Assembly (NCBI GenBank): GCA_903851365.1
Contig: CAINOB010000002.1
Location: forward strand, 12,051-76,050
Direction of reading: 5' to 3'
Length of the DNA: 64,000 nucleotides
DNA from: an uncultured Bacteroidota bacterium
GTDB taxonomy: Bacteria; Bacteroidota; Bacteroidia; Bacteroidales; UBA12481
Shown: positions 36,950 to 59,521 of the stretch, piece after piece
Layout of the letters: each line of letters begins with the position of its first letter
Position numbering within the stretch: the stretch's first letter is position 1
The notes under the pieces: generated by a model
Database searches by the model: none
The model's input: the letters and a program-made list of their open reading frames with translations, nothing else
What the model was told of the DNA's origin: nothing
Position numbers and translations under genes: made by a program

Positions 36950-36951
36950 GA

Positions 36952-37248: not shown

Positions 37249-37253
37249 TTTTA

Positions 37254-37302
37254 TACTATATTCTGAGCAAAAATAATGAATATGTTTGTAATATAGTACA
37301 AA
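37254..37302 (-). promoter_or_regulatory. Candidate hipBA promoter with flanking inverted repeat (possible HipB operator)
   Basis: The minus strand has TTTG (37299-37302) and TATTTTTG (37268-37275, which fits TAnnTTTG) 19 nt upstream of the hipB ATG. A 9-bp inverted repeat, TACTATATT (37254-37262) / AATATAGTA (37290-37298), brackets the -7 box. The region is AT-rich, so chance matches are possible. Confidence 0.35.
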
Positions 37303-37308
37303 ATTTTT

Positions 37309-37350
37309 CATTAGTCATTTCCTTCGTAGTAATAGGAGTAGTCAATACCT
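37309..37350. repeat. Direct repeat copy B (42 bp) flanking the hipBA cassette
   Basis: cattagtcatttccttcgtagtaataggagtagtcaatacct matches copy A (35666..35707) at 39/42. Confidence 0.85.
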
Positions 37351-37406
37351 TCCATAAACACTTCGCGGTCGTCAAAGAAACGTATGGATATTTTTGCGTT
37401 ACTCAT
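37311..37406 (-). other. 31-codon ORF whose 3' end is repeat copy B (possible remnant of a disrupted gene)
   Basis: My translation is MSNAKISIRFFDDREVFMEGIDYSYYYEGND*. The last 12 codons plus the stop lie in the repeat. Copy A would encode GIDYSCYYEEND* in the same relative frame. Whether it is expressed is unknown. Confidence 0.2.
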
Positions 37407-37517
37407 AATTTTAATGTCTTTTATTCTGTCTCTCTGTGCGCTGGCCCCAAGGATTGCGCGAACGATCCAAATAGGTAAGCATAGGGAATAGCGGTAGTTT
37501 GCTTTGTTTCTTGAGTT

Positions 37518-38906: not shown

Positions 38907-40436
38907 TTATTTCAATGCGCTGCGCCCCTCAACTTTACTCTTTTCCAGCAGCGCCTTCAATTCGGCAACGATCTCCGGGTGTTTGAAATAGAGATTCACT
39001 GTTTCCCCTGGATCGGTTTCGAGGTTGTAAAGCTGGCCCGGTGCATCGGGCGAATTGTCAGGAAGGGCGAAGGGTTTGAGCTCGGGATTGTTGTAGTTAT
39101 TCCCGCCCGAGCCGCGATGATCGAGGTATTTCCAGGGGCCCTTGCGGATGGCGAGCGCCAGACTGATGGTCTGATGCAGGGTGTATGGGCGGATACTGTT
39201 ATCACTCTTTTTGCCGAGCAGTAAGGGAAGAATATCAAAGCTGTCCTGGGCGGCGCTATCAGGCAGAACGGTGCCGGTAATAGCAGCACATGTCGCCATG
39301 ATATCGGTGAGGCAGACTGTTTCATCGCTCGTTGTGCCGGATGCGATTTTACCTGGCCAGCGAACGATGAAGGGAACCCGGTGGCCCCCTTCCCACTGAT
39401 CGCGTTTCATCCCGCGCCAGGGCCGTGCCCCGTCATGGTCATAGTCGGCACGCATGTGAACCACTGCTGTAGTTTCCGGACCGTTGTCGCTGGAAAACAT
39501 AACTATCGTGTTGTCTGCCAACGCAAGCTGCTCGAGAGTTTTCATCAACTCACCCACGATGTAATCGAGTTCATGGATGAAATCCCCGTGGGGTCCGGCC
39601 TTTGTGCTGCCCTGAAACTGCTTTGAGGCGAAAGAGGGCAGATGCACCGCATTCATTGCGTGGTATAGGAAAAATGGTTTATCCGGCTGATTTTTTGCGT
39701 GTTGTTCCAGGAACTCCCGGCTCTTTTTCAGGAAAACCATATCCAATTCTTCCAGGTCATAGTTTGGGGCGATCATGCCCTCGCGGTTGTCGTTGGCATA
39801 CGGGTGTTTGGGCAGCTTCGATTTGTCGAGCATCCCGGTGGGAGGTACCGGAATGCGATCACCATCAATGAAGGCATAAAGAAAATCAGTGGCCGGGCAG
39901 CATGCAGTACCGAAAAACTGGTCGAAACCCCGATTAATCGGCCCGTCCGGAATTGCCCGTGAATAATCGATCATCTTCACGCCTTCAACGTCTTGTTTCG
40001 TGATGCGCTGCCCATCCTTGTCAAAGAAACTCAGTCCGACATGCCACTTGCCTGTCATCGCGGTGGCATATCCCTGGTTGCGGAGCATCTGCGGCAATGT
40101 CAGCTGATCTTCAGTGATGAGGCAAGGCCCACCTACACCGGCAAATACCCCTTTATAGGGGATACGGAAGGCCATCCGGCCTGTCAGCAGGCCATACCGG
40201 CTGGGTGTAGAAACGGTGGACGGAGAATGCGCATCGGTGAACCGGATACCTTGCTTTGCAAGTCGATCGAGGTTTGGTGTGGCGACTTTGGATTCCGAAT
40301 TGTAGCAACCGATATCACCATAGCCAAGGTCGTCGGCGAGAATAATTATGATGTTGGGTTTCGCCTGCTTTGGCGTATCAGCAGCCTGAGAAGCCAATGG
40401 GGTGAGCAGGAGAGTGGTGAGAAGGGTTGATTTCAT
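38907..40436 (-). CDS. Sulfatase family protein, apparent Ser-type (S-T-P-S-R) formylglycine motif, secreted
   Basis: Signal peptide present. Sulfatase blocks NIIIILADDLGYGD, AHSPSTVSTPSRYGLLTGR, GKWHVG and SDNGPE. The codon at 40209-40211 is TCT (Ser) where Cys is usual. Confidence 0.85.
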   Translation of the reverse strand: MKSTLLTTLLLTPLASQAADTPKQAKPNIIIILADDLGYGDIGCYNSESKVATPNLDRLAKQGIRFTDAHSPSTVSTPSRYGLLTGRMAFRIPYKGVFAGVGGPCLITEDQLTLPQMLRNQGYATAMTGKWHVGLSFFDKDGQRITKQDVEGVKMIDYSRAIPDGPINRGFDQFFGTACCPATDFLYAFIDGDRIPVPPTGMLDKSKLPKHPYANDNREGMIAPNYDLEELDMVFLKKSREFLEQHAKNQPDKPFFLYHAMNAVHLPSFASKQFQGSTKAGPHGDFIHELDYIVGELMKTLEQLALADNTIVMFSSDNGPETTAVVHMRADYDHDGARPWRGMKRDQWEGGHRVPFIVRWPGKIASGTTSDETVCLTDIMATCAAITGTVLPDSAAQDSFDILPLLLGKKSDNSIRPYTLHQTISLALAIRKGPWKYLDHRGSGGNNYNNPELKPFALPDNSPDAPGQLYNLETDPGETVNLYFKHPEIVAELKALLEKSKVEGRSALK

Positions 40437-42445
40437 CGAAGTAAATTAATCTCCTGTTTATCAGTCGGTTTTGTAATGCCGGGCCAGTCATCGGTACGGA
40501 ACGGCACAGCAGGCAGGTTTTCCTTGTTGTAAAGGTTGCATACCGGATTATCAGCCCACCCATATCGGACAGCTACAGGGGCGGGAACCTGAGGTGAAGA
40601 AAGCAATACGGCTGATCCGTCAATTACTGCATTTGCCCAGACGAACTTCCTATCGGCACCGGCAATCGCAAATCCGGTTAATTTATCTCCTTTGGCGATG
40701 AGCCCGCTTTGGGCGTGATCAAAAGTGAGCCTGATACCTTTGGGAGTAATTTCCATGGATTTGTACCATGGTCCCGACCATTCGATATTCTTTCCGTACG
40801 TGTTGGCCAGAGCGCTTAATGCCAGCCGGCGTCCAACTTCCAGTTTGTTTCGAGGATGGATGTTCGCTGCATCACCGATATCGATGGCCATGGCGATACC
40901 GCATCCGGGCATCGCTTTTGCGGCTACAGCCTGTGCTTCACGCAGTTCTGCCCAAGCGCTTTCTTGCGGCACATCAGATGTTTTCATGAAATTGGCCAGT
41001 GAAACGATATGGAATCCGAAGTCGCCGACACCGAAGCGGGCGCGCCAGTCGGAGATCATCGTTTGGAGCAAAGTGCTGTATTGATAGGCCCTGTCGGCGT
41101 TACTCTCGCCTTGGTACCAGATGGCTCCCTTAATGGCAAAAGGTAAAAGGGGCGCGATCATTCCGTTGTACAGCACCGAGCAGACGTTTGGGTTACCGAT
41201 CAGCGGGGCTCCGGTGGCAGCGCGGGCGGCAGTTTCCTGAACCCGCCACAGACCAGCAAGTGTGATGGCAGAGGATTCATCTCCGGATGGGTAGGCCTTC
41301 ATTTGTTCAGCCGGGCCGAAAAAACCGCCGCCTCCGGAATTCACCACTCTCATGGAAATTATGTTTGTGCCTGGTTTAATCACCGTGGCCGGCACTTTGT
41401 AGATTCGCGGCTTATCAAAGTTATCTGTGTGACCCACAGGGATTCCGTTAACCCAGGTAATATCGCAGTCGCCGATTGTACCAAAGCTGAGGACGACCTC
41501 TTTGCCGCTCCAATTGGAAGGCACTTCAAATGTGTGATGCACCCAGACAACGCCTTCATAACCGGGTATTCCGCACTTTTGCCAGTCAGCGGGCATGTTT
41601 GCCGTTTTCCAGGAGGATACATCGGTTTCCGTTTTGAACCAGGCATTTGTGGTCCCAGGGTCATGGGTTTGGTACCATTTATCCATTACTGCACCGAGCT
41701 GATCTTTTTCGGGAGAGGCTGTCACCTCTTTCACCCGTTCCAGGTCGGATGCGAAATCTGACAGCGGAGCCAGCGCTCCGGCACTGGTCCACGCCTCGCA
41801 GACTGTACCACCCCAGCAAGTTTCAATAAGGCCGATCGGAACATTAAGTTCGCTGTGAAGGTCCCGGCCGAAGAAATAGGCCGCGGCTGAGAATCCTCCC
41901 GAGGGGCCTTTTATGATGGTTGCCGGACTGCATAGCTGCCAGCTGCAACTGAGCGTGGCTTCCGGCGTGTAGGCAATCTTCTGGGGCACGGTCAACAAGC
42001 GGATCCCTGGATAATTAGCAGCAGCGATCTCGTCGGGTACCCTGCACAATCCGATGCCCATCTCCATGTTCGACTGGCCGGAACAAATCCATACATCACC
42101 GACGAGAATGTCGGAGATTTGAGATTTCAATTTGCGATCGGTCGATTGCACATTGAGTACCCGGCCTTTTCTGCTTGCCGCCATGGGATCGAGGCGGGCC
42201 ATCCATTTACCGTCGGCTGCCGCGGTGGCATTTTTCTTTTGTCCCGCAAAGCTGACTGTGACCGTTGCACCGGGCTGAGCCCATCCCCAGACAGGCACCC
42301 TGAAATCGCGCTGCAGAACAGCATGATCGGCGAAAAGAGGATGCAGCAGTGGTTTTTCATCAACAACGGAGGCGCTAACCATGATGGTAAAAGCGAAGAG
42401 CAGAAGGCTAGTAAGACAAAAAGCGGAAAAATATTTTGAAATCAT
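40433..42445 (-). CDS. Sialate O-acetylesterase-like (SASA/DUF303) carbohydrate esterase with inserted beta-sandwich domain
   Basis: Signal peptide present. The GDVWICSGQSNME motif and length are typical of Bacteroidota 9-O-acetylesterase-like enzymes. Its stop overlaps the sulfatase start by 4 nt. Confidence 0.75.
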   Translation of the reverse strand: MISKYFSAFCLTSLLLFAFTIMVSASVVDEKPLLHPLFADHAVLQRDFRVPVWGWAQPGATVTVSFAGQKKNATAAADGKWMARLDPMAASRKGRVLNVQSTDRKLKSQISDILVGDVWICSGQSNMEMGIGLCRVPDEIAAANYPGIRLLTVPQKIAYTPEATLSCSWQLCSPATIIKGPSGGFSAAAYFFGRDLHSELNVPIGLIETCWGGTVCEAWTSAGALAPLSDFASDLERVKEVTASPEKDQLGAVMDKWYQTHDPGTTNAWFKTETDVSSWKTANMPADWQKCGIPGYEGVVWVHHTFEVPSNWSGKEVVLSFGTIGDCDITWVNGIPVGHTDNFDKPRIYKVPATVIKPGTNIISMRVVNSGGGGFFGPAEQMKAYPSGDESSAITLAGLWRVQETAARAATGAPLIGNPNVCSVLYNGMIAPLLPFAIKGAIWYQGESNADRAYQYSTLLQTMISDWRARFGVGDFGFHIVSLANFMKTSDVPQESAWAELREAQAVAAKAMPGCGIAMAIDIGDAANIHPRNKLEVGRRLALSALANTYGKNIEWSGPWYKSMEITPKGIRLTFDHAQSGLIAKGDKLTGFAIAGADRKFVWANAVIDGSAVLLSSPQVPAPVAVRYGWADNPVCNLYNKENLPAVPFRTDDWPGITKPTDKQEINLLR

Positions 42446-42447
42446 AC

Positions 42448-44838
42448 TCAGGGTTTATTAAAGTTGATTTGCCAGGAGACCTCCCCATTATCCGGGCGCT
42501 CAAGGATGATTTGTACCAGCCCATCGGCGGGGTGTTTTTGAAGTTTTGCCTTTGCCCCGGAAGCTGTTACGCGGGTTGCTTTGCTGCCATTGCCGGCCAC
42601 AACGATTTTGAAAGGTTCGCCGCCGATCACCTTGGCTACGCCTGACAAACTATTTCCTTTGGCGTCCCACTTAACATTGGCCAGATCCACCCAGCCTTGA
42701 AGCACATGGCGGTTAGTGGATAAAACCTGCGGATTCGATTGAACCTTTCGGATGGAGAGCATGGCGCAATGGGTAGGCCCTAAAAGTTTCTCAATTTTTG
42801 CGGTACCGGAATACTTGCCGACTAACGAGTCCGACCAGAATTCATAAACATAATAGGATGCAGCGGGATCGAGTCCGATGGCTCCGGCAACATGTTCACC
42901 GCTGAGTGCCGCCGAAATCATATCAGTTCTGGCCGTGTCGGGATTGAACAATGCCACCTGATGCCACTCGGGCGTCAATTCGAGATCGTACACACGCGGA
43001 TTGGCAATGCCGGTAAAGGCATCCAGGGGACGTGCGCTGTGCGGCTCACGATACAGCGGATAGATGCGTGTGACATCATGGAGGATCTCCGGCGTGAACA
43101 AACGGAAAGACGTTGCGAGTTCCAGTCGCCCGCTGGTTAGAAAAATCATGGTGAGGAGCGATTGGCGTACTTTGGGCGTGCGGTTATGTACCGCTTTGCT
43201 GTCGGGGTAGTAGTTGAACACCACGCGGTTTTTATACCAGCGCAGGCCGCATGTGGTCACCATGCCGGGTACATACTCGTTCGAGTCTCCCCAAACCCGC
43301 TGCATGTCCACCAAGCCCGCGGTAACGTCCAGCATAGGCCGGCCGGTTTCCCCCAGATTACGCTCGTGTATGAAAGCATCCGGGCCCAACCCTTCGCGGC
43401 ACAGACGGAACACTTCGCGGTAGGCAAAAGCAGTAGTGGCATATTTGTTTTCGAAACCTCCCTCCGGCCGCCAGCCGGTCTCGGGGTAGTCGAATTTGAT
43501 GCCGGTCATACCGTCGTTCTTAAGCCGTTGCCAGGTCGACAGAACGTGTTTCTGAAAATCCGGATCGGTATAGTCGTAGGTTACTAACGGCTGATGATGC
43601 GGATGTTTGACTTGCAGCCGGGAAATATCGTTGAACAGCATGTGGCCGGGGAAGGCCCGGGCGTAATCGTCTGACGGCAGGCCAACCTGGAAGTAAGTGA
43701 ATGGGATGCCGCCACGCGCTTTTAGTGCTGCACACCACTTGGCAAATGTTTCATACGGGGCGACCAAATGTCCATATTTCGACCAGTGCGCATCATCCCA
43801 CCACCCCTGTTCCGTATTGCCGTCCTTATAGCAATAGGTATCCGGCTCCAGGCGGATGGCAACTTTGGTATATTTGGTAATGCCCGCCTTTTGCCCCATC
43901 TCCAGCTCTGAAATCAACGCCACGCTGTTATTGATGTCGCCGAGTCCGCTCAGCGCTCCCACCGCCCAGCCACATAATGTTGGGAAATCATAAATGTTAG
44001 GTCGTGCATTGTTTGCCACCCGCATGGCAAGGCCATAGGTTTCAAGAGCAATAAAAGGATCAGGCTGCGTGACATCAAGATAAAAGTTGTCTTCTGAAAA
44101 ATAGGTTTCCCCCGGATTCACTAAACGACCCACAGGGTCCTCAGCCCTCATATCAATTTTACCGTCACGCAGGGCAACCCATTTCCCAAACTCTTTGTTA
44201 GCCAGACCACCCCACACCAGCGACAACCGTTTCCCATCGGCAAAACACGTTAATAGCAGGCTGTTTGGACAAGCCCGGTTCAGCCCCTTCTCGATACGCG
44301 GGACATCGGCACCCGCAGCCCCGTTGAGCGTTTGCGGCACCTCCAGCAACTTTCCGGACAACACCCGTCCATGCATCATCGGCGAAGCCTTCATCAATCG
44401 GGCTCCCTGCGGCATGATATTCCGTATGCCAAAACCCATGACTACACCCCCCCTTCCATCATACACCGCAAAACTGAAGATATATACCGGGATCGACCGG
44501 GTCCCCGGATGCTCCATCTCAACTACCAAACGGTGTCCGTGGCCAAGCGCATCATTGACCTCCTCCTGTTTCCCTGTGAATCTCATACCATCGGTATTGC
44601 CCCATGAATCCGCTGACACTCCAGCCTGGTCAATAATCAATTGCCCGGTTGCCTTGTCGGTAATCGTATACATGCCATTGGACATATCGAATGCCAGGGA
44701 AACAATTTCATTGGAAAGGACTACCTGACCAGACGTTTCATCCTGATTCAATTCAATGGCAGCCATCTTTGCGGGAGCAAAAACCAAACCTATTGACAGT
44801 ATAACTGATAAAGAGAGAATTCGCCTGATGTTGATCAT
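42448..44838 (-). CDS. Putative glycoside hydrolase, alpha-galactosidase-like (clan GH-D TIM barrel), family uncertain
   Basis: The start at the ATG 44836-44838 (MINIRRILSLSVIL, signal peptide) overlaps the upstream stop by 1 nt (TAATG). The blocks FPTLCGWAV, MTGIKFDYPETGW and MQRVWGDSNE resemble the strand-end motifs carrying the nucleophile and acid/base in GH27/31/36-type barrels. Confidence 0.45.
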   Translation of the reverse strand: MINIRRILSLSVILSIGLVFAPAKMAAIELNQDETSGQVVLSNEIVSLAFDMSNGMYTITDKATGQLIIDQAGVSADSWGNTDGMRFTGKQEEVNDALGHGHRLVVEMEHPGTRSIPVYIFSFAVYDGRGGVVMGFGIRNIMPQGARLMKASPMMHGRVLSGKLLEVPQTLNGAAGADVPRIEKGLNRACPNSLLLTCFADGKRLSLVWGGLANKEFGKWVALRDGKIDMRAEDPVGRLVNPGETYFSEDNFYLDVTQPDPFIALETYGLAMRVANNARPNIYDFPTLCGWAVGALSGLGDINNSVALISELEMGQKAGITKYTKVAIRLEPDTYCYKDGNTEQGWWDDAHWSKYGHLVAPYETFAKWCAALKARGGIPFTYFQVGLPSDDYARAFPGHMLFNDISRLQVKHPHHQPLVTYDYTDPDFQKHVLSTWQRLKNDGMTGIKFDYPETGWRPEGGFENKYATTAFAYREVFRLCREGLGPDAFIHERNLGETGRPMLDVTAGLVDMQRVWGDSNEYVPGMVTTCGLRWYKNRVVFNYYPDSKAVHNRTPKVRQSLLTMIFLTSGRLELATSFRLFTPEILHDVTRIYPLYREPHSARPLDAFTGIANPRVYDLELTPEWHQVALFNPDTARTDMISAALSGEHVAGAIGLDPAASYYVYEFWSDSLVGKYSGTAKIEKLLGPTHCAMLSIRKVQSNPQVLSTNRHVLQGWVDLANVKWDAKGNSLSGVAKVIGGEPFKIVVAGNGSKATRVTASGAKAKLQKHPADGLVQIILERPDNGEVSWQINFNKP

Positions 44839-47318
44839 TATTGCTCTATGTTTTGAATATTGATAGTACCTGATTGTAAATCCTTTGCCCGGCATTGAAC
44901 GGATATCGTTCCTTTCCCTTTCGGACGGATAGTCAGCAGCAATCTTCCTTCGTAAGCTTCGCGTTTGTTTTGTTTGTACAATTCATGACTGAACTGGTTT
45001 CCCGAATCCAATCCGATCAATTCACCCGCGCCAGCTACATCAACAGTTATCTCGTTTTTTGCTAATGGACAGCGTGTGCCCTTTTCATCCTGGATCTCAA
45101 GGGTAAGAAAAACAAGTCGTTCGCTTTCCGGGCCATCGGATTTCCATTCCTCTTTTAAACCCAGTTTTTTTGGTTCACCCGCCGTTTTTAATGTATGGGT
45201 GGCGACTATCTGGTTTTTGTTAAAGGCTTTTGCAATCAGTTCACCCTGTTTATAATTAACAAGATAGATGGCCTGATAGGTATTTGGATTCACTGCCTTT
45301 TTCCCAAGGCTTTTACCGTTTTGATATAACTCAACTTTTTCAGTGTTGCTGTATACAAAAACCGTATCCACCTCCCCCGGATTAAAATTCCAGTGCGAGG
45401 CAACGTTGTAGCTGCGCCACTCGAAGTCGTCTTTTACTTTCAGGTTTACTGCGATGTGAACCATCGGTTTTTCCGACCAAAATGCCTGCCAGTAGTAATA
45501 CAAGGGTTTTTCGAAACCGGCGATATCAATCAGTCCCCATTCCCAGCCTCGACGGGGCCAGCCGAGCGCTTCTCCTAAATAATCTATCCCCACCCACAGG
45601 AACAGGCCGACAACATTTGGATTATCGCGCACAGCAAGCCAGTTTTCGAGAGTCAGGTAGTTCTCAGCGCCAAGCAGAATCCGGTTTGGATAGCGGGCAT
45701 GTTCTTCGCGATAATGCTCCTTAAAATACCGATCGGGATAATTATATCCGGCGACATCCATGGTGTCGAAAAATCCATTAGCATTTGCCCAGGGCGACCA
45801 ATCGCAAGTGGCTGTTATCATGCGGGTATTATCCTCCTCTTTTGCCCAATCGATAAGCTTTTTCAGGGTTTTGGGCCCATCAGGATATCGCTGGTCAGGC
45901 ACTTCATTTCCCACCGAATACATAAATACGGAGGGATGATTCCGATCACGCCTGACCATATCCTTCAAATCGGTTTCTGCCCATTGGTTGAAGAAAATGT
46001 GATAGGTGTATTTGTTCTTACCTGCCGGATCTTCCGTCTGGCCATAGTGCCAGGTATGGTTCCATTCATCAAAAGCTTCCGCCATCATATACATACCCTT
46101 TTCATCGCACACCTCAATAAAGGCAGGGTCAACCGGTCCGTGTGTGCGGATGGCATTGCAGCCCTGCGCCTTCAGCTTGTCAAGCCGGTATCGCCAAACG
46201 TCCTTGGGGACTGCGGTTCCAAAAGAACCGGCATCTTTGTGGAGGCATACCCCTTTAATAATCACTTTCTCTCCGTTTACAACCAGTCCCTGATCTTTAT
46301 TGAAAACAATAGTACGAATTCCCACTTTCTGCTGCTCAGTATCGACCAGGCGGTTCTCAATCCACAACTGAAGCTCCAGCGTGTAGAGATATGGGTTTTT
46401 ATCCGACCAAAGCACTGGATTTTTAGCTTCAATATTCAGGGTGGATTTTACCGATGTGTAATCGCTAAGGTCACAGCTATCGATGGCTTTAGTAAAAATG
46501 CCACCATCCCTGCCTTTCAGAAGTGCAACTATCCGGGCTTTTTTCAGCACTTTTTTCCATTCTTCAGGAAACCGCTGGAAATTAACTTTCATGCTCTCGG
46601 TATAATTGTTGGAAATTACCTCGCAATCTACCTTGAGCCTGGCAACGTTGCCATTTGCTGAAATGGTCCTGAAAAAGGTGCCGAAGGATTTAAAATGCTG
46701 CTGCCCGGTAATAAAAAGACGGACGTTCCGGTTAATTCCGGAACCGGTGTACCATCTGCAATTATTAATCAATGAATTATCCACCTTAACGGCAATCACG
46801 TTGGTTTTCCCATCATATTTTAAAAAGGGTGTTAAATCGTATTCAAAAGTGCTGAATCCATACGGACGGTTTCCCAGGTATATGCCATTCAGATATACCG
46901 ATGAGTTCATATAAACCCCATCAAACCTGATTTTAATCCGTTTCCCTTTTGAACCCTCCGGTACTACAAAATGCTTACGATAACAACCGATCCCATAAGG
47001 CAGATAGCCGCCTGATGCACCGCTTGGGTTTGCCTCCGCAAATTGTCCTTCTACCGACCAATCGTGAGGAACATCCAAACGACGCCATCCGGAATCATCA
47101 AACTCAGGGACGTAAAAACCAGGGGATTCGCCTAAATAAAATAGCCAGTCTGCATTAAAGTTCAGCTGCACATCCATCACGGGTTCAGCAATCACCTCTT
47201 TACCAGCAATTTTATTGCTCTTATCACGGAAAACATTTTCATCAACCTGTGAAAAAGCACCCTGGCAGATAAAAGACAGAAGTCCGAACAGCAAAATTAA
47301 TTTACGTGACCAGTTCAT
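44838..47318 (-). CDS. GH2 family glycoside hydrolase (beta-galactosidase/beta-glucuronidase type), secreted
   Basis: Signal peptide present. GH2 blocks WRRLDVPHDWS, VYLNG, IRTHGP and NHPSVFMYSVGNEV (acid/base Glu context). Confidence 0.85.
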   Translation of the reverse strand: MNWSRKLILLFGLLSFICQGAFSQVDENVFRDKSNKIAGKEVIAEPVMDVQLNFNADWLFYLGESPGFYVPEFDDSGWRRLDVPHDWSVEGQFAEANPSGASGGYLPYGIGCYRKHFVVPEGSKGKRIKIRFDGVYMNSSVYLNGIYLGNRPYGFSTFEYDLTPFLKYDGKTNVIAVKVDNSLINNCRWYTGSGINRNVRLFITGQQHFKSFGTFFRTISANGNVARLKVDCEVISNNYTESMKVNFQRFPEEWKKVLKKARIVALLKGRDGGIFTKAIDSCDLSDYTSVKSTLNIEAKNPVLWSDKNPYLYTLELQLWIENRLVDTEQQKVGIRTIVFNKDQGLVVNGEKVIIKGVCLHKDAGSFGTAVPKDVWRYRLDKLKAQGCNAIRTHGPVDPAFIEVCDEKGMYMMAEAFDEWNHTWHYGQTEDPAGKNKYTYHIFFNQWAETDLKDMVRRDRNHPSVFMYSVGNEVPDQRYPDGPKTLKKLIDWAKEEDNTRMITATCDWSPWANANGFFDTMDVAGYNYPDRYFKEHYREEHARYPNRILLGAENYLTLENWLAVRDNPNVVGLFLWVGIDYLGEALGWPRRGWEWGLIDIAGFEKPLYYYWQAFWSEKPMVHIAVNLKVKDDFEWRSYNVASHWNFNPGEVDTVFVYSNTEKVELYQNGKSLGKKAVNPNTYQAIYLVNYKQGELIAKAFNKNQIVATHTLKTAGEPKKLGLKEEWKSDGPESERLVFLTLEIQDEKGTRCPLAKNEITVDVAGAGELIGLDSGNQFSHELYKQNKREAYEGRLLLTIRPKGKGTISVQCRAKDLQSGTINIQNIEQ

Positions 47319-47329
47319 TTGGATTTGTA

Positions 47330-48973
47330 TTATTTCTCTAATCCCTGCTGGGTAACAATGGGAACATAACCTATCTCCAGCCCTTTTGGCGGGGTGACTA
47401 GCAGAGCCGGGTCAATTTCGGCCAATTTCCCAACCAAGGGTTTAGGAAGGTATTCCCGGTTCTTAGTCCAGTTCCGGTGAAGCAGTTCCACCCGCCTTTG
47501 CATTTCTTCACGCTCCGCTTTGGTCAGATCGGCGTTGAGCAAGGCAGGCTGGTCAGCGAACCGATACCAGTAGTAGGTTAACGTGCTGCCGTCTCCAAGT
47601 TTCACTTTGAACGGACCGGCTGCGGGGCCGGGGGTTTTCCAGCAACTCGTTTTTTCATCAGGAGTCACATAAGCCACAGGAGTGCGTGGTTCAGTATTGT
47701 TAAAGGTAACATTCTGAAGTCCGGTTTCAACCGGCACCTCTTTGGGCGACACGGCTATCCACTTACCAATGGTATCATTACCTTCTTTTACCAATTTATA
47801 ATATTCAGGAAGGGTTACAACAGAGCCGTTATCTGTTTTTCTCGTTGTGATAAGCTCACCTGACCAGCGGACCCTGAGGGTTGCCGAATCAGTGACATTA
47901 GCATCCATATAGGAAGTAATATTCAGTAAGGCACGTTTATTCTTGGGAATATGATCGCCATAAAGACTCCAGTTCGACCGGACCCCTTTTTGAAATTTCT
48001 GCATGGTAGCTCCTGCCAGATCAATGGTGCCATCAGCCTGTGCACCTCCTTTAAACCAGGCTTCCACTTTGTCCCAGAGCGCCTTCTTGTTGTATACCAT
48101 CAGACGGTGCAACAGATCTGAATTGCCATCGGCACCCAGGGGGTACTGTGTCGTAGCGATACGGACATAAATCTGGCCTTTAGAGTCGGTAGCTTCAGCC
48201 GAACGTATATGCTGTGTTTCCATCTGAAATGCCTTGTTGGCTTGTGTGGGGCGCTGATCGAGAAACATCCCGCTTAATTTGGGATTTTCAACGGTTGCCT
48301 GGGACCAAAAATAAGGGGTAAAGAAGGCAACCGGGCCCTTGAAATTCGCGGTATTTATAAACAGGGTCCAGCACTGATTCCCGGTAGGAACGTCGGTCCC
48401 GGCAGTGGTGGATTTAGGCTCCGTGAGCGGCAATGGGAGGTAACCGCTGCCAAACAATTCACCGCAAGTGCCCTGCTTCAGGTTTAAGCCATCGGGAGGC
48501 CATAGAAGCCAGGGACTCAGCTGAGCTGCTCCATATTTTCCTTTATCATTGCTCCAGTCTCTGCCTTGTCCGGCGCCAGGTCCATTAGCCCAACCGGCAA
48601 AGTTCAGCTGCACTCCGCCCATGATGAATTTTGGTGTTGCCGTGGCGTACTCTGTGTCGTTCCACCAGCCCAGACCTCCTTCAACATCGGTATAAAAATC
48701 CTTTTTTGTCAGAGGACTGTTATTCTGAGGAAACATCCACGAACCGAATAAGCCTGATTGAAAACTCCGGCCAGGATACTCTTTTACTAATGGAAAGGCG
48801 GCTGCATACATTGAGTAACCCGCATTGAAAGTGGTGTCAACTTTATCCACCTTCAAGATCATATACCCGCCGATATTGGCTTCGCGGATCTTGTTTTTTG
48901 TGGAGGCTTTATCCTGTGCCGAAACCATAGTGGTCAGCAGTAAGGCGATGATAATGTTAAGTAGGTATTTCAT
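47330..48973 (-). CDS. Uncharacterised secreted protein (family X), no T9SS CTD
   Basis: The ATG at 48973 gives the signal peptide MKYLLNIIIALLLTTMVSAQ; the track start 49051 would overlap the upstream gene. It is a close paralogue of 49008..50957 and ends ...GYVPIVTQQGLEK directly after the shared core. Confidence 0.7.
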   Translation of the reverse strand: MKYLLNIIIALLLTTMVSAQDKASTKNKIREANIGGYMILKVDKVDTTFNAGYSMYAAAFPLVKEYPGRSFQSGLFGSWMFPQNNSPLTKKDFYTDVEGGLGWWNDTEYATATPKFIMGGVQLNFAGWANGPGAGQGRDWSNDKGKYGAAQLSPWLLWPPDGLNLKQGTCGELFGSGYLPLPLTEPKSTTAGTDVPTGNQCWTLFINTANFKGPVAFFTPYFWSQATVENPKLSGMFLDQRPTQANKAFQMETQHIRSAEATDSKGQIYVRIATTQYPLGADGNSDLLHRLMVYNKKALWDKVEAWFKGGAQADGTIDLAGATMQKFQKGVRSNWSLYGDHIPKNKRALLNITSYMDANVTDSATLRVRWSGELITTRKTDNGSVVTLPEYYKLVKEGNDTIGKWIAVSPKEVPVETGLQNVTFNNTEPRTPVAYVTPDEKTSCWKTPGPAAGPFKVKLGDGSTLTYYWYRFADQPALLNADLTKAEREEMQRRVELLHRNWTKNREYLPKPLVGKLAEIDPALLVTPPKGLEIGYVPIVTQQGLEK

Positions 48974-49007
48974 TCGTAAATAATTTATTGTTTCAAGTGT
49001 AATTGGC

Positions 49008-50957
49008 TTATTCCGATTTAATAAACTTAATGAACTTTGAATAAACTCCATTGGTGAAATTCAGAAAATACAGACCATCTGAAAGAAACCTGATATCAAG
49101 CACTTCCCTGGTGTTGTACAATTTTACAGTCTGAATTATTTTCCCCGTTATATCCATTAATTGAAGTTTCGTATTGGTGTCGGGAACGGTCTGCAGTAAA
49201 ATGTTTAAGTAATGCGATGTCGGATTTGGATACACTTCAATTACCGGGGACTTGTTGAAGGCACTACGATCTGTAGAATTTACCTCCGATAATTCCTGAC
49301 GTATAACAATCGGAACATATCCAACTTCCAAACCTTCTGGTGGCGTGACTATCAGGGCGGGGTCAATATCCGCCAGTTTTCCAATCGTGGGTGGAGGCAG
49401 GTATTCACGATCCTTGGTCCAGTTCCGGTGCAGCAATTCCACCCTCCTTTGCATTTCTTCACGCTCCTCCTTGCTCAGGTCGGCATTGAGCAATGCAGGC
49501 TGGTCGGCAAACCGATACCAGAAGTAGGTTACCGTACTGCCATCCCCCAGATTCGCCTCAAACGGTCCGGCTACCGGACCCGGGGTATTCCAGCAACTTT
49601 CTCTGTTTGCCGGAGTAATGTACGCCACAGGGGTTCTTGCGGCAGTATTGCTAAAACTAACATTCTGGAGTCCGGTTTCTGCCGGCACCTCTCCGGGTGC
49701 CACTGCAATCCACTCACCAATGGAGTCATTCCCGGTTTTTACCAGTTTATAATATTCGGGAAGAGTCACCACACTACCGTTGCCTGTTTCTCTCCGTGTG
49801 ATAAGGTCACCTTCCCAACGAACCCTCAAAGTTGAATTATCGGTGACATTTGCATTCATATAAGAAGTAATATTCAGATAAGCACGTTTATCCGCAGGGA
49901 TATCATCAGCATACAAACTCCAGTTTGACCATACTCCTTTATTGAATTTCTGATTATAAGCCCCGGTGAGATCAATGGATCCATCAGCCGGTGCACCTCC
50001 CTTAAACCAGGCATCGACCTTGTCCCACAGCGCCTTCTTTTTATAGACCATCAGGCGGTGCAACAGATCCGAATTTCCATCGGAATCCACAGGATACTGT
50101 GTCGGAGCGACACGTGCATAGGTCTGTCCCTTGGAATCAATAGCTTTAGCGGAACGGATATTTTGCGTTTCCATCTGAAATGCTTTGTTGGCTTGAGAGG
50201 GACGCTGATCAAGAAATAACCCGCCCACTCGTGGATCCTTTGCGGATGCCTCGGTCCAGAAGTAAGGGGTGAAGAATGCAACCGGGCCCTTGAAATTCCC
50301 GGTGTTAAGGAACAGCGTCCAGCATTGGTTTCCGGTAGGAACGGCAATACCTGCCGTAGTGGTTTTCGGCTCAGTAAGCGGCAAAGGCAGATAGCCACTG
50401 CCAAACAATTCACCGCAAGTGCCCTGCTTGAGGTTTAAGCCATCGGGAGGCCACAATATCCATGGACTCAGCTGAGCCACACCATATTTCCCATTTGGAT
50501 TGCTCCAGTCTCTGCCCTGTCCGGCACCAGGCCCGTTTGCCCATCCGACAAAGTTCAGCTGTACTCCACCCATAATAAATTTTGGTGTTTCTGTGGCATA
50601 TTCTGTATCGTTCCAGCAGCCAAGACCTCCTTCAATATCCGTATAAAAATCCGTCACCGGTAATGGGCCATCGTTTTGCGGAAACATCCAGGTACCAAAC
50701 AATCCCGATTGAAAGCTCTTGCCCGGATACTCCTTTACCAAAGGCCATGCTGCAGCATACATCGAGTAACCCGCATTGAATGTTGTGTTCACGCTCGCTA
50801 CCTGCGCAACCATATACCCGCCAATATGGGCATCGCGAATCGATACCACTCCGGAGGTTTTCTCCTGTGCCGTTACAAAGGGGGCTGTCAGAAGGCAAAG
50901 GATAATGGCGAATAAAGATTTCAGAATGTTTTTTTTCGTCATAGGGTTCAGGTTCAT
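49008..50957 (-). CDS. Uncharacterised secreted protein (family X) with T9SS C-terminal sorting domain
   Basis: Signal peptide present. The core is collinear with 47330..48973. The last 77 aa (49008..49241: IEVYPNPTSHYLNILL...GLYFLNF...KFIKSE) are a T9SS CTD. The start overlaps the upstream stop by 4 nt. Confidence 0.7.
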   Translation of the reverse strand: MNLNPMTKKNILKSLFAIILCLLTAPFVTAQEKTSGVVSIRDAHIGGYMVAQVASVNTTFNAGYSMYAAAWPLVKEYPGKSFQSGLFGTWMFPQNDGPLPVTDFYTDIEGGLGCWNDTEYATETPKFIMGGVQLNFVGWANGPGAGQGRDWSNPNGKYGVAQLSPWILWPPDGLNLKQGTCGELFGSGYLPLPLTEPKTTTAGIAVPTGNQCWTLFLNTGNFKGPVAFFTPYFWTEASAKDPRVGGLFLDQRPSQANKAFQMETQNIRSAKAIDSKGQTYARVAPTQYPVDSDGNSDLLHRLMVYKKKALWDKVDAWFKGGAPADGSIDLTGAYNQKFNKGVWSNWSLYADDIPADKRAYLNITSYMNANVTDNSTLRVRWEGDLITRRETGNGSVVTLPEYYKLVKTGNDSIGEWIAVAPGEVPAETGLQNVSFSNTAARTPVAYITPANRESCWNTPGPVAGPFEANLGDGSTVTYFWYRFADQPALLNADLSKEEREEMQRRVELLHRNWTKDREYLPPPTIGKLADIDPALIVTPPEGLEVGYVPIVIRQELSEVNSTDRSAFNKSPVIEVYPNPTSHYLNILLQTVPDTNTKLQLMDITGKIIQTVKLYNTREVLDIRFLSDGLYFLNFTNGVYSKFIKFIKSE

Positions 50958-52981
50958 TTTCTTATGGTAATTTTTACCGGAACCTCTTCATTTAACGAAA
51001 CATACAAAATCAGGTCGTCTCCATCAAGCTGATGGTTAATGCCCACTTTACTATTACTGTTTTCTTTTCCGTTTACCAGGATTTTAGCTCCCTCAGAATT
51101 CCAGTTTTTTACCCTGATGGCCGGATTAATGACCGGTGAATCCTTGCTTCCCTTAAGCGTTAACTCAAGGGTACCGCCTTTGGAATTATTGCTTTCCAGC
51201 TGGTAACATCTCTGGGTTTTATCATATCCATTTGAAATATATCCATCAGCGGTCATGGAGAGTTCAGGGGCATAGGCCCACGACCGGCCGAAACTGACCA
51301 GATCATGGATGTTCAATCCATTCATTCCATACAGTCCCATCCAATACATGCGATTTCCGCTCTCATGAATTACAGGATCAGAGCATGGCGAACTGCTAAT
51401 ATGGGCAGGGCGATCCAGTGTTTTGGCCCATCGTCCGTCGCTACGGGCCTGGTTTACGGGATAATGGTTGTATCCAACATCAATCCATCTCACCCACATA
51501 TCGTTACCTGGTTCAAAACAGATGAAAGGTTTGTTTTGCGACTTGAAATTGAATTGCTGAACGGTATATTTTCCTGGCCAGTCGGCAGGCTGCTTTTTAA
51601 GGTCTACTGATACAGTTCTTGTATTGTAATTGTAATCTGCTACCGACACATAATTGTTTTCAAGGAGGTCTTCGTTACGCTGCCCGGGTTGTGTGAAGGG
51701 CAATGATTCCTGATATTGTATGGCGTCGCCTGTAGTCCCTTTATTCCAGGAAACTTTCCGGATAGCTGATCCATCGGGATAAATGTAGTAGTATTCATCC
51801 ACCCAACATTCCCATCCGGTTTTGGGATCGGGCATCCAGGTGTGATCGTGGGAACTGACCAAAGCATAACGCCAGTGGACCACCGCTCTGGCAGCAGTGT
51901 TTTCAATGATTCTGACATGTGAGAAGCGGCAATGGCGATCCTGCATATGTTCGAAACAACCCTCTATATCATCTTTTCCGTTGCCCCAGGTTTCCAGGCT
52001 TTGATCAGCCATCCAGTTTTCATTTTCAGACACCCAGGCTGGACCATAACGGGAACCCCTCCAGAATATCATCTTAGAAGGATTATTGTCGAAGCAAACC
52101 ACGATATCAGGATCCTGGTCCACAGGCCATAGATTATCCCATCCGGGGTAGTAATTCAGCTTGGTATAATAAGCACCAAAATGACCCGGATTCTTTTCAA
52201 TTGTTGGCAGCCTGCGCGGTTGAATATCCGGCACTGATGGTTTGACTTTTAAATAATCGCCTTTGATCTGGTCAACAGTCAGGGCAGTATCAAACACCTT
52301 TACTTCATCAATAATTCCATCCAATCCGAAGTAAGCTTCAACGGTTCCCCAGGTCCGGATTGTATTGCTTGGCCTACCGGGCACAGTCACCATTCCGAGA
52401 ATGCAGCTGTTTTTTGAAGGGTAGGTCAGTGAGCCTTTGATCGGCACCGAGGCGGCCAGTTCACCGTTTACATAGAGCACCATTTCCTTTTGTGCTGTAT
52501 ATACCCCTGCAATATGCATCCATTTCCGGAGCGGCATGGTTTCGTTGACACTGGTACAGGCTATCCACTGTTCACCGATGGCTGTTTCCAGGGAGACCTG
52601 TCCGTAAGGGCCGATGAGGAGGCGGTATCCCTTTACCTCATCAGATTCCGTGGTGATTACGGGGCACCAGTTCTCGGGATATTCGCCCAAAGCTACCCAG
52701 GCTTCGATAGTAAAAGACGTCCCTGGTTTCTTAATATCATTCCCGGTTCGGATCACCCTGGTAGTAAATCCATCCAGGCGCAAGCCTTTTCCGGCTACAC
52801 CAGCCACCGATTCAAAATTACCTTCAATGGTATCTGCGATTTTGGTGGATTCTTCAATCACAGTCCGTTTAATGATCGTTTCAAAATTCCAGGTCATGAC
52901 GGGGGTCTGAGCCATTGCCGTCTGTTGTGCAGCCAGCGAGGTCAATAACAGGGTGAGGATGAGGTTACCGATATATTTCAT
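50954..52981 (-). CDS. Secreted LamG/concanavalin-A-like jellyroll domain protein with ~440-aa unrecognised C-terminal region
   Basis: Signal peptide MKYIGNLILTLLLTSLAAQQTAMAQ. Residues ~40-240 (KGLRLDG..., WVALGEYP..., WMHIAGVY..., MVLYVNGELAA) fit LamG-type lectin folds. I do not recognise the remainder (Trp/Tyr-rich, HMQDRHCRF, WECWVDEYYYIYPDG). Confidence 0.6.
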   Translation of the reverse strand: MKYIGNLILTLLLTSLAAQQTAMAQTPVMTWNFETIIKRTVIEESTKIADTIEGNFESVAGVAGKGLRLDGFTTRVIRTGNDIKKPGTSFTIEAWVALGEYPENWCPVITTESDEVKGYRLLIGPYGQVSLETAIGEQWIACTSVNETMPLRKWMHIAGVYTAQKEMVLYVNGELAASVPIKGSLTYPSKNSCILGMVTVPGRPSNTIRTWGTVEAYFGLDGIIDEVKVFDTALTVDQIKGDYLKVKPSVPDIQPRRLPTIEKNPGHFGAYYTKLNYYPGWDNLWPVDQDPDIVVCFDNNPSKMIFWRGSRYGPAWVSENENWMADQSLETWGNGKDDIEGCFEHMQDRHCRFSHVRIIENTAARAVVHWRYALVSSHDHTWMPDPKTGWECWVDEYYYIYPDGSAIRKVSWNKGTTGDAIQYQESLPFTQPGQRNEDLLENNYVSVADYNYNTRTVSVDLKKQPADWPGKYTVQQFNFKSQNKPFICFEPGNDMWVRWIDVGYNHYPVNQARSDGRWAKTLDRPAHISSSPCSDPVIHESGNRMYWMGLYGMNGLNIHDLVSFGRSWAYAPELSMTADGYISNGYDKTQRCYQLESNNSKGGTLELTLKGSKDSPVINPAIRVKNWNSEGAKILVNGKENSNSKVGINHQLDGDDLILYVSLNEEVPVKITIRK

Positions 52982-53152
52982 AATTGGTTGATTACCGTGC
53001 TAAAGGTAGCAGGCAAATTGGAAATAGATGTGTATCTGATTGTCAGGACCAGGCACTAACTTGGCAGGTCTATTTGTCAAGACCCGCTTAGGCTGCATGT
53101 TTTTGTATATCCGGTCTTTAGTTATATTTAATACTTGAATCAGACAGATAAA

Positions 53153-59517: not shown

Positions 59518-59521
59518 CTTT

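Follow-up and report, generated by a model that had tools for sequence, protein, structure and literature searches.

Do seven tightly packed minus-strand genes (38907-52981), more than half of whose products have no assigned function, constitute one machinery for digesting a polysaccharide, and if so, what kind of polysaccharide is digested? This question was examined using the 64-kb stretch of DNA of a Bacteroidales bacterium, hereafter called the window.

Organization of the Operon

The seven genes form a real operon of this bacterium (Table 1). Their number, order, and junctions agreed exactly with the original prediction when compared with both the open reading frames and the sequence. The start positions adopted for g3 and g5 agree with those annotated publicly in three other assemblies, and they fit the homologue lengths of 546–551 aa and 790–797 aa, respectively. 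Signal peptides were found on 7/7 products, each of which has between 833 and more than 3500 homologues in the databases. The intergenic region 5′ of g1, which is presumed to hold the operon promoter, is the sole non-coding gap longer than 34 nt within 38907-53134. Terminator-like sites were not enriched, as 20 were found against 22.2 expected in shuffled sequence. The GC content is 0.53 for g5–g7, 0.45–0.49 for g1–g4, and 0.35–0.39 for four nearby non-CAZyme genes, so that the operon is a compositional mosaic. Because of this mosaic, the g1–g4 and g5–g7 halves may have been joined recently, perhaps without a common substrate, which counts against reading them as a single system.

Table 1. Features of the window. 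Gene boundaries are those of the open reading frames, and junctions of g1–g7 were read in the sequence.
Feature	Positions	Strand	Length	Content	Junction to next gene
g1, LamG675	50954-52981	minus	675 aa	signal peptide; Laminin_G_3, residues 83-240; C-terminal region, ~430 aa	ATGA, 4-nt overlap
g2, famX copy 1	49008-50957	minus	649 aa	signal peptide; famX domain, ~520 aa; T9SS type-A C-terminal sorting domain, residues 575-647	34-nt gap
g3, famX copy 2	47330-48973	minus	547 aa	signal peptide; famX domain without sorting domain; maximal ORF reaches 49051	11-nt gap
g4, GH2	44838-47318	minus	826 aa	GH2 glycosidase, beta-galactosidase type	TAATG, 1-nt overlap
g5	42448-44838	minus	796 aa	secreted protein, unannotated family; maximal ORF reaches 44895	2-nt gap
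g6, CE20 (SASA)	40433-42445	minus	670 aa	O-acetylesterase with inserted ancillary domain	ATGA, 4-nt overlap
g7, sulfatase	38907-40436	minus	509 aa	S1 formylglycine sulfatase, Ser-type	
Divergent intergenic region 5′ of g1	52982-53134		153 nt	presumed operon promoter region	
Upstream operon	56377-62623	minus		GFO/IDH/MocA oxidoreductase; GH127-like; SASA + DUF3863 + DUF3864 + 3-keto-disaccharide hydrolase gene, 1046 aa (Pfam)	
Second famX operon	9279-18266	minus		T9SS protein, 634 aa; famX paralogue; GH95-like, 755 aa; GH115	gaps of 1, 29, and 9 nt, by coordinates

Enzymes of Recognized Families

Pfam, NCBIfam, and PDB searches upheld the family labels given earlier, with a qualification for g5, and g4, g6, and g7 belong to known enzyme families. 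The g4 product has the full GH2 architecture of five domains (Pfam). It scored 6.5e-158 and 1.7e-154 against the NCBIfam models GalB and GalA, neither of which reaches the equivalog cut-off, and the PDB entries closest to it are beta-galactosidases (5t9a, 8q2h, 4ypj, 7cwd, and 9bey). In g6, Pfam detected SASA (1.6e-16) and a GH2_N-like domain (3.3e-10) at residues 277-371, and the full length was matched by Fl8CE20_II (9h4u, 4.6e-136) and 7kmm (1.5e-121). The GQSNM motif is present in g6. A by-eye reading of its translation, made without an alignment, places N-I-H at the apparent catalytic DxH block, where Asp/Asn variation has been reported for CE20 esterases (PMC12313940). The Sulfatase domain of g7 (8.4e-53, Pfam) carries the motif S-T-P-S-R-x-x-L-L-T-G-R, as read in the translation. 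Its PDB matches are 6s20 (2.5e-76), 7p26, 7oze, and the S1_15A enzyme 9bas (1.3e-69), and g7 is closest to the S1_15 galactose/GalNAc 6-O-sulfatases.

The label "clan GH-D-like" proposed for g5 stands only in part. Sub-threshold Melibiase_C matches were obtained for 26/30 members of the g5 family (best 1.9e-5), some of which carry NPCBM. However, g5 itself has no match in Pfam, NCBIfam, or PDB by sequence, and its PDB profile search was also empty. It is hence possibly an alpha-galactosidase-like glycosidase, an assignment we consider unproven. The family comprises 833 homologues of g5, including one of 80% identity in a Verrucomicrobia MAG, and the pairing of g5 with a SASA esterase gene was seen again in four loci (L004, L005, L027, and L028). 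Since g5 has no such match, the products without assigned function amount to four (g1, g2, g3, and g5; ~2670 aa), and not the three (over 1800 aa) counted originally.

The famX and LamG675 Families

The C-terminal sorting domain of g2 was recognized by both Por_Secre_tail (2.7e-12, Pfam) and TIGR04183 (3.8e-10), and the predicted destination of g2 is the cell surface or medium. No Pfam domain was called for g3, which is predicted to be periplasmic. The two proteins are 78% identical with dN/dS of 0.14 at dS of 0.95, indicating that famX is under purifying selection. Such a tandem of one copy with and one without the sorting domain also occurs in relatives. The third paralogue, located in the second famX operon, is a 627-aa protein with a T9SS domain that is 35% identical to g2.

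The famX family occurs, at 55–89% identity, in 589 or more species genomes that cover at least five phyla (Bacteroidota, Planctomycetota, Verrucomicrobiota, Lentisphaerae, and Sumerlaeota), and it forms 1339 clusters at 50% identity. None of the more than 3557 homologues of g2 gave a Pfam domain beyond the sorting domain, and neither sequence nor profile searches of PDB gave a match to famX. The AF2 model is poor (pLDDT 49.9) with a beta-rich confident part, and Foldseek found no meaningful match to it. Four acidic residues, E98, D239, E252, and D461 (g3 numbering), are invariant in 44/44 long members. These 44 include fusions to SASA (7), the T9SS sorting domain (6), ricin-type lectin (4), F5/8-C (2), LamG (2), and GDSL (1); fusions to adhesin-like repeats (PATR, SdrD_B, Ig, LRR, and DUF4214) also occur. 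The SASA–famX fusion is encoded by three uninterrupted reading frames of Planctomycetota (L047, L069, and L082).

The positional profile of famX neighbors over 74 loci placed a SASA esterase at −1 in 12/69 and at −2 in 5/59 loci, against 2/304 for ±3 to 6, and a sulfatase at +1 in 10/67. Pfam counts for immediate neighbors were 14+5 for SASA, 7+11 for Sulfatase, and 6+4 for Laminin_G_3. SASA esterases, sulfatases, and LamG675 are thus the preferred neighbors of famX, though the linkage to sulfatases is weakened because they are common in these genomes (~8% of flank genes). Linkage or fusion of famX with these three and with carbohydrate-binding modules spans phyla. This fusion pattern is expected of a catalytic CAZyme module, and together with the neighbors and wide occurrence it suggests that famX is probably such a module, possibly a surface depolymerase.

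Laminin_G_3 was detected in g1 at 3.9e-20, and the C-terminal region carries the invariant motif GCFEHMQDRHC. The 1991 homologues, at 67–95% identity, include those of Planctomycetota. PDB matches were limited to the LamG part, leaving the C-terminal ~430 aa unmatched, and the AF2 model of this region, likewise poor (pLDDT 58.7), gave Foldseek TM-scores of 0.25 or less. In 22 metagenome loci, famX occurs at +1 (12/66) or +2 (10/50) of LamG675 homologues, often with a SASA gene between the two; GH95 and GH106 are also frequent neighbors. We infer that LamG675 may be catalytic as well. The g1, g2, g3, and g5 proteins represent three widespread, highly conserved families that lack an explanation in domain libraries and solved structures and are hence candidates for new carbohydrate-active enzyme families.

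Genomic Surroundings

The GH127-like and SASA-DUF3863 genes directly follow famX in relatives, while here they lie in the separate upstream operon, so that the seven genes are part of a larger unit. As predicted originally, SusC/D, a sensor, and a regulator are absent, and this holds across the window for SusC/D, hybrid two-component or other sensors, an ECF/anti-sigma pair, and a glycan-type regulator; the single HTH protein is paired with HipA. No transporter is linked to the operon in the window, which counts against the explanation favored below. In Ginsengibacter hankyongi (L002), however, the LamG675–famX core lies directly downstream of SusC/SusD within a one-strand PUL, and a SusD gene is located near the core in Cyclobacterium (L003). 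M60-like and GH20 genes also occur near famX in these two loci. The gene families of the operon recur in relatives in shuffled order and within a SusC/D PUL. The gene set itself is therefore not unusual, only its arrangement in this genome, and "non-canonical" overstated the case.

Proposed Substrate and Division of Labor

The proposed sulfated, O-acetylated glycan is a reasonable reading, because the operon combines the CE20 esterase, the S1_15-like sulfatase, and a GH2 enzyme of beta-galactosidase type. With a probability of roughly 0.55, we consider that the seven genes are one translationally coupled operon whose products act jointly on a sulfated, O-acetylated heteropolysaccharide with divided labor. 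In this scheme, the T9SS-exported g2 would probably cleave the backbone or branches at the cell surface, and g3 and LamG675 would process the imported fragments. The g6 esterase would take off O-acetyl groups and g7 the 6-O-sulfate, and g4 and the glycosidase-like g5 could then trim the exposed sugars. A precedent exists in which S1_15 sulfatases, a GH2 exo-beta-galactosidase, and an alpha-galactosidase act behind a secreted endo-enzyme (PMC12549532). Another is given by Verrucomicrobial loci that hold GH29, S1_15, and PF03629 together (PMC8857213). The likeliest substrate would be a fucose/rhamnose/galactose-rich algal or microbial exopolymer, judging from the neighboring families (GH95, GH106, GH115, GH127-like, and a GH78 pseudogene or remnant), though this set fits pectic RG-II or other glycans as well.

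It seems improbable, though conceivable, that famX, LamG675, or both have no catalytic role and instead bind glycans or serve as scaffolds at the surface (SGBP- or lectin-adaptor-like), presenting the substrate to the esterase, sulfatase, and glycosidases. The lectin-type LamG domain of g1, the fusions to adhesin-like repeats, and the predicted T9SS export of g2, a route of many adhesins, would suit such a role, as would the failure of Pfam, NCBIfam, and PDB searches to find a known catalytic domain or solved relative. However, an identity of 55–60% between phyla over ~520 residues with invariant Glu/Asp is unusual for binders, fusions to an esterase and CBM-type modules (ricin, F5/8-C) typify catalytic modules, and g3 is kept under purifying selection as a copy predicted to be periplasmic. 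Equally doubtful is that famX represents a recent CAZy family that lacks both a Pfam model and a solved structure, such as the endo-1,3-fucanase family GH187, making the operon a variant fucoidan or sulfated-fucan locus. Fucoidans bear both sulfate and O-acetyl groups, and endo-fucanase families occur chiefly in Bacteroidota, Planctomycetota, Verrucomicrobiota, and Proteobacteria (PMC12534559). GH174 and GH187 are described as beta-sheet-dominated (PMC12534559), and the famX model is beta-rich where it is confident. According to PMC11685898, these two families are not reliably detected by dbCAN v3, and planctomycete fucoidan loci pair fucanases with GH95, GH115, and S1 sulfatases; the latter three are present in this window. 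GH29, GH107, GH141, and GH168 are nevertheless absent from the window, and record names of relatives often indicate lake, river, or other non-marine samples, where brown-algal fucoidan is absent. GH174 is itself unlikely, since a structural study of a GH174 fucanase is mentioned in PMC12534559 and PDB searches with famX were empty, although the PDB copy may lack that entry.

A plant cell-wall or host-type substrate, such as acetylated glucuronoxylan, pectic RG-II, arabinogalactan, sulfated O-acetyl-sialylated mucin, or a keratan-type glycan, also appears unlikely. Among solved structures, the one nearest to g6 is of a xylan deacetylase from a glucuronoxylan PUL with GH95, GH115, and GH27 (PMC12313940). 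SASA esterases, S1_15 6-O-sulfatases, and beta-galactosidases work on mucin and keratan glycans too, for which the M60-like and GH20 genes of L003 and L002 could also speak. The neighboring families listed above, which the window holds, resemble those of RG-II loci. Against such substrates, the window holds no xylanase, xylosidase, pectate lyase, GH28, sialidase-family (GH33), or GH20 gene, and plant wall glycans are unsulfated, although sulfatases rank second among the neighbors of famX. Mucin does not suit the rhamnosidase, GH127, and GH115 genes, and the record names of many related loci again indicate lake, river, or other environmental samples.

Comparison with Known Systems

The operon resembles a SusC/SusD-type PUL in that its secreted enzymes (glycosidases, an esterase, and a sulfatase) are clustered on one strand, one probable enzyme family is present in copies predicted to be at the surface and in the periplasm, and the LamG675–famX core lies inside a true PUL of G. 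hankyongi. It differs in its absence of SusC/D, a hybrid two-component sensor, and an ECF/anti-sigma pair within 64 kb, and in its predicted use of a T9SS sorting domain for surface delivery, with no evident lipoprotein signal. The lambda-carrageenan cascade of Pseudoalteromonas distincta employs GH150, GH110, GH2, S1_15, and S1_8 (PMC12549532). Its GH2 exo-beta-galactosidase (9bey) matches g4 at 1.8e-114 and one of its S1_15 6-O-sulfatases (9bas) matches g7, and a secreted endo-enzyme and an alpha-glycosidase step come first. In contrast, GH150, GH110, and S1_8 are absent here, famX and g5, the candidates for the endo-enzyme and the alpha-glycosidase, are of unassigned families, the neighbors are of fucosidase and rhamnosidase types, and an acetylesterase is present, whereas carrageenan has no acetyl groups. 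Along its full length, g6 is similar to the CE20 enzymes Fl8CE20_II, PpCE20_II, and XacXaeA (PMC12313940), including the GQSNM block and the beta-sandwich inserted in the SGNH domain, though it differs in N-I-H at the apparent DxH block and in a genomic context that is neither xylan nor xyloglucan.

Loci of Verrucomicrobia and planctomycetes for sulfated fucose/rhamnose polymers likewise combine S1_15, PF03629 (SASA), GH95, GH106, GH78, GH2, and GH115 (PMC8857213 and PMC11685898); the examined passages on them do not discuss the famX, LamG675, and g5 families. The g5 and famX families are nevertheless common to those phyla at 57–80% identity. The endo-fucanases GH107 and GH168, as well as GH29 and GH141, are absent here, and the present host is a member of Bacteroidales with T9SS export. 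In T9SS-dependent digestion by Flavobacterium johnsoniae, the extracellular chitinase ChiA, for example, is exported through its type-A C-terminal sorting domain and periplasmic enzymes finish the degradation, and the locus of this exported chitinase still has SusC/D-like genes. Although g2, which is predicted to be exported, is of an unassigned family and has no linked transporter, it bears the same type-A C-terminal sorting domain.

Operon Architecture

The seven minus-strand open reading frames of the original prediction, g1 (first gene) to g7 (last), were all present in the sequence at 38907-52981. The junction spacings that had been claimed for them were identical when read from the DNA with starts at 48973 for g3 and 44838 for g5. 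Three other assemblies of this sequence have public gene calls with these starts, and the homologue lengths are consistent with them. Signal-peptide-like N-termini were read from the translations of all seven products. The count of terminator-like sites was not above shuffled-sequence expectation, and a sigma-70 promoter scan also remained at shuffle level, though the promoter consensus of Bacteroidota differs from the sigma-70 type. The seven genes lie on one strand with short or overlapping junctions and without an internal terminator signal, and are predicted to form a real operon.

Features of the operon, its surroundings and the related fusion genes (window coordinates unless a locus in another genome is named)
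Feature	Position	Strand	Detail
g1/g2 junction			ATGA, 4-nt overlap
g2/g3 junction			34-nt gap
g3/g4 junction			11-nt gap
g4/g5 junction			TAATG, 1-nt overlap
g5/g6 junction			2-nt gap
g6/g7 junction			ATGA, 4-nt overlap
Region upstream of g1			divergent intergenic, 153 nt
Region downstream of g7			189-nt gap, then low-GC DUF5128 gene
Conserved g1 motif	51929-51961	-	g1 residues 341-351
Decayed GH78 gene	53135-55656	+	divergent, directly upstream of operon
Separate upstream operon	56377-62623	-	contains the GH127-like and SASA-DUF3863 genes of the window
1046-aa protein	56377-59517	-	DUF3863/DUF3864 core
3-keto-disaccharide hydrolase (DUF1080) domain	56377-56970	-	C-terminal in the 1046-aa protein
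GFO/IDH/MocA oxidoreductase	61259-62623	-	
Second minus-strand cluster	9279-21723	-	tightly spaced; M1+M28+PDZ peptidase (1119 aa), T9SS protein (634 aa, sorting domain its sole domain), famX paralogue with sorting domain, GH95-like (755 aa), GH115
PIN-domain + DUF6364 pair	21949-22610	-	toxin-antitoxin-like
Xylose-isomerase-like TIM-barrel protein	22713-23588	+	
HipA + XRE-type HTH pair	35699-37311	-	toxin-antitoxin-like
SASA-famX fusion frames	L047:8804-11581; L069:4913-7915; L082:9059-11620		

Recognised Enzymes

The product of g4 contains PF02837, PF00703 and PF02836 in GH2 order together with DUF4982 and GH2_C5, all above their Pfam gathering scores, so that the sugar-binding N-terminal, Ig-like and TIM-barrel catalytic domains follow one another as expected for this family. 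Its full-length PDB matches extend down to 8.4e-131, and the nearest relatives are GalA/GalB-type and other exo-beta-galactosidases, including the GH2 enzyme of the lambda-carrageenan cascade. The g6 product has a SASA domain with an inserted GH2_N-like domain at residues 277-371 (Pfam), which agrees with the CE20 architecture, in which an SGNH/SASA fold is split by a beta-sandwich ancillary insert (PMC12313940). It matched Fl8CE20_II (9h4u, 4.6e-136) and XacXaeA (7kmm) over its full length, its translation carries the GQSNM nucleophile block, and it belongs to the CE20 O-acetylesterases.

For g7, the Pfam Sulfatase match was 8.4e-53, and the formylglycine motif STPSRYGLLTGR and a metal-binding-type ADDLGYGD were read in the translation. 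The motif is of the Ser type (STPSR...LTGR), and (C/S)-x-P-x-R, LTG(R/K) and the N-terminal DD of S1 sulfatases are all present. Its best informatively named PDB matches were the GalNAc-6-O-sulfatase 6s20 (2.5e-76) and the S1_15A and S1_15B sulfatases (9bas, 9bau), with arylsulfatase A next at 1.8e-62 in this comparison with the PDB. The g7 product belongs to the S1 sulfatases, having S1_15 types among its closest solved relatives.

Distribution, Neighbours and Fusions of famX

Three of the seven products had been counted as having no function, and the count is now four: g1 beyond its LamG domain, g2, g3 and g5. The g2 and g3 products constitute one unannotated family, famX, of which g2 alone ends in a type-A T9SS sorting domain (residues 575-647; PF18962, 2.7e-12; TIGR04183, 3.8e-10; 0.0015 against the sorting domain of PDB 8glj). 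More than 3557 famX homologues were found, none with a Pfam domain in the famX part, and the family falls into 1339 clusters at 50% identity. The species genomes that carry it number at least 589 and represent at least five phyla (Bacteroidota, Planctomycetota, Verrucomicrobiota, Lentisphaerae and Sumerlaeota), with identities of 55-89%. Comparison of g2 with g3 gave a dS of 0.95 and a dN/dS of 0.14, indicating old paralogues under purifying selection; such a pair, one with and one without the sorting domain, is also found in relatives. Four acidic residues (E98, D239, E252 and D461 in g3 numbering) are invariant over 44 long, diverse members.

The gene neighbourhood was examined at 74 famX loci from species genomes, whose genes were called and annotated with the window proteins and Pfam (loci of other genomes bear L-numbers here). 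The characteristic upstream neighbour of famX is an SASA-type esterase, which stands at position -1 in 12/69 loci and at -2 in 5/59, as against 2/304 at positions 3 to 6 on either side. Sulfatase is the commonest gene downstream (+1 in 10/67 loci), and the third-ranking neighbour is LamG675, the family of g1. Pfam counts for the immediate neighbours were 14+5 for SASA, 7+11 for Sulfatase and 6+4 for Laminin_G_3. Moreover, three Planctomycetota MAGs have uninterrupted frames of 854-1001 codons that join an N-terminal SASA domain to a full famX. Among the 44 long members the fusion partners were SASA (7), T9SS sorting domain (6), ricin-type lectin (4), F5/8-C (2), LamG (2) and GDSL (1). LamG675, famX, the g5 family, an SASA/CE20 esterase and an S1 sulfatase constitute a recurrent module whose order is shuffled across phyla, and this neighbour and fusion evidence from relatives indicates that the window operon unites it. 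A GFO gene adjoins famX in L039, L041 and L001. A 555-aa protein of the Verrucomicrobia locus L004 was considered as a famX member and discarded, as it gave no phmmer match.

LamG675 and g5

LamG675 comprises a Laminin_G_3 domain and a C-terminal region of about 430 aa. Its 1991 homologues, Planctomycetota included, are 67-95% identical. In 78 metagenome loci famX was located at +1 (12/66) or +2 (10/50) of LamG675, in many cases separated from it by an SASA gene, and GH95 and GH106 genes also frequently lie nearby. The segment G-C-F-E-H-M-Q-D-R-H-C of g1 is invariant or nearly so in 37 homologues from different phyla, and its Cys-x2-His...His-Cys spacing could represent a metal site or a disulfide.

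The 796-aa g5 protein matched neither Pfam nor NCBIfam. Its 833 homologues include an 80% identical one in a Verrucomicrobia MAG and some NPCBM fusions, and an SASA/CE20 gene follows the g5 homologue in L004, L005, L027 and L028. The original prediction placed g5 near clan GH-D, of which the only hint lies at the C-terminal side: Melibiase_C was matched by 26/30 family members below the gathering score (best 1.9e-5; g5 itself 0.046), but homology to the central catalytic domain of GH27/GH31/GH36 was undetected. When, as a blind check for GH27 similarity, the g5 profile was compared by hhalign with famX-flanking proteins of at least 250 aa, including a strong Melibiase_2 (GH27-type) one, none exceeded 25% probability. 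The best match was a DUF3863/DUF3864 protein (L014:3407-5017; 25%, E 7.6e-4, 136 columns, g5 residues ~459-604), which is too weak to claim, and both this family and the g5 family co-occur with famX. Against the PDB, the g5 profile gave nothing beyond a chance-level 5opq (E 0.81). The I-K-F-D-Y-P motif of g5 is one that we take to be like the K-x-D nucleophile motif.

Family Assignment of famX

PDB sequence and profile searches found no solved relatives of famX, LamG675 or g5; those with g1, g2/famX and g5 gave just the LamG domain, the T9SS sorting domain and chance matches. Profile-profile comparison showed the three families to be mutually unrelated. AlphaFold2 models had a mean pLDDT of 49.9 for famX (36-sequence alignment) and 58.7 for the C-terminal 431 aa of g1 (37 sequences), since the alignments were too shallow, with a mean column identity of 64-73%. 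When these low-confidence models were compared with the PDB by Foldseek, no TM-score exceeded 0.25 and no usable fold emerged. A vague Foldseek resemblance of g1 to a beta-supersandwich/galactose-mutarotase-like fold was not relied on.

Two assignments of famX to families already described were weighed. PMC12534559 cites a paper on a GH174 structure, yet the famX searches of the PDB were empty; membership in GH174 is hence unlikely, as far as the PDB copy searched covers that structure. The novelty of famX was judged against Pfam, NCBIfam and the PDB, and famX may belong to a CAZy family that has neither a Pfam model nor a structure, notably GH187. With a probability of roughly 0.35, famX, perhaps together with LamG675 and g5, would found undescribed CAZyme families; famX would act on a sulfated, O-acetylated glycan, by cleavage or modification, with an SASA deacetylase as its obligate partner, and its T9SS copy would be the extracellular depolymerase of a PUL-like system that has no linked SusC/D pair.

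Surrounding Clusters and Composition

The locus had been described as a non-canonical polysaccharide utilisation system. Plug, TonB_dep_Rec and SusD_RagB domains were absent from the window in a Pfam search of all open reading frames of at least 150 aa and several smaller ones, and no HTCS, ECF sigma/anti-sigma, SusR, GntR or AraC-type regulator was found in it, the only HTH protein being the HipA partner at 36952-37311. However, SusC/D-type genes lie next to famX in L002 and L003, and in the Ginsengibacter locus L002 the LamG675-famX core comes directly after SusC/SusD, accompanied by GH127, GH106, DUF3863/4, GH20 and sulfatase. The gene set is therefore PUL-associated, and what is atypical in this genome is solely how the genes are arranged.

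Directly after famX, relatives have a GH127-like gene and an SASA-DUF3863(-GH2) gene, which in the window belong to the separate upstream operon; an SOUL gene and a decayed GH78 gene intervene between that operon and g1. The functional unit is predicted to extend beyond the seven genes. Two frameshifts and one in-frame stop have left the GH78 alpha-L-rhamnosidase gene in four pieces, and identical fragmented gene calls on two other assemblies argue against a single-assembly error. The core of the 1046-aa protein matched the uncharacterised structural-genomics entry 3lm3 at 1.1e-143, and a literature search on DUF3863 found no mention of it, though the family recurs beside famX. On a JGI contig (sample 3300059473), SASA, DUF3863, DUF3864 and a complete GH2 are united in one product of 1665 aa. 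Its gene is flanked by a GH127-like gene and a g5 homologue and has a famX tandem upstream; the functions fused in it are split over two operons in the window. The GFO/IDH/MocA, DUF1080 and xylose-isomerase-like proteins form a set similar to parts of the oxidative (3-keto) glycoside-cleavage route.

The third famX paralogue of the window (35% identical to g2) carries a T9SS domain and stands at the head of a second operon with the GH95-like and GH115 genes, and such genes recur near famX in L011, L026 and L030 among the genes checked. The 634-aa T9SS protein of this cluster was rejected as a famX/LamG675 relative because only its sorting domain matches. The stretches between the CAZyme clusters hold two toxin-antitoxin-like pairs.

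The GC content was 0.53 for g5-g7 (38907-44838), 0.45-0.49 for g1-g4, 0.57 for the GH95 gene (32155-34491) and 0.35-0.39 for four nearby non-CAZyme genes (34616-38717, 55734-56354). This mosaic points to horizontal acquisition and piecemeal assembly of the operon. The same is indicated by the verrucomicrobial protein with which g5 shares 80% identity, and both observations suggest that CAZyme genes were transferred across phyla.

Proposed Mechanism and Comparison with Known Systems

The coupled operon encodes a secreted set in which deacetylase, sulfatase and beta-galactosidase functions stand beside three conserved families without an assigned function, one famX being T9SS-tagged. We infer that g2 would attack the polymer extracellularly, probably by depolymerising it, and that g3, g1, g5, g4, g6 and g7 would process the oligosaccharides in the periplasm, where deacetylation and 6-O-desulfation would precede exo-glycosidase action. 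The likeliest substrate may be a sulfated, acetylated heteropolysaccharide containing fucose, rhamnose and galactose, as tentatively suggested by the GH95, GH106, GH115 and GH127-like genes of the window, and the GH78 remnant, and by similar gene sets in Verrucomicrobiota/Planctomycetota (PMC8857213, PMC11685898). A literature search on esterase and sulfatase combinations in Planctomycetes returned nothing specific.

Algal and microbial polysaccharides that carry sulfate and acetyl groups make up a large pool of carbon that is degraded slowly, and few of the enzymes able to open them up are known. The famX, LamG675 and g5 families are abundant and strongly conserved in Bacteroidota, Planctomycetota and Verrucomicrobiota, and gene order, with gene fusion in addition for famX, ties them to deacetylases and sulfatases. 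A catalytic famX would be a new, ecologically widespread enzyme family and would fill in a step that is lacking for glycans left unexplained by current CAZyme annotation. If famX instead belongs to a recent family such as GH187, the range of that family would be extended well beyond marine flavobacteria and a defined set of partner enzymes would be gained.

The proposed order of steps mirrors the lambda-carrageenan cascade, for which the sulfatase-before-glycosidase logic was shown (PMC12549532). At the system level, the locus is a variation on a known kind, namely CAZyme operons or PUL-like clusters that export by T9SS. What is new is the trio of unannotated cross-phylum families, especially the Rosetta-stone link between the esterase and famX, and as a starting point for enzyme discovery the operon is solid and testable, but it is not a surprising new kind of system.
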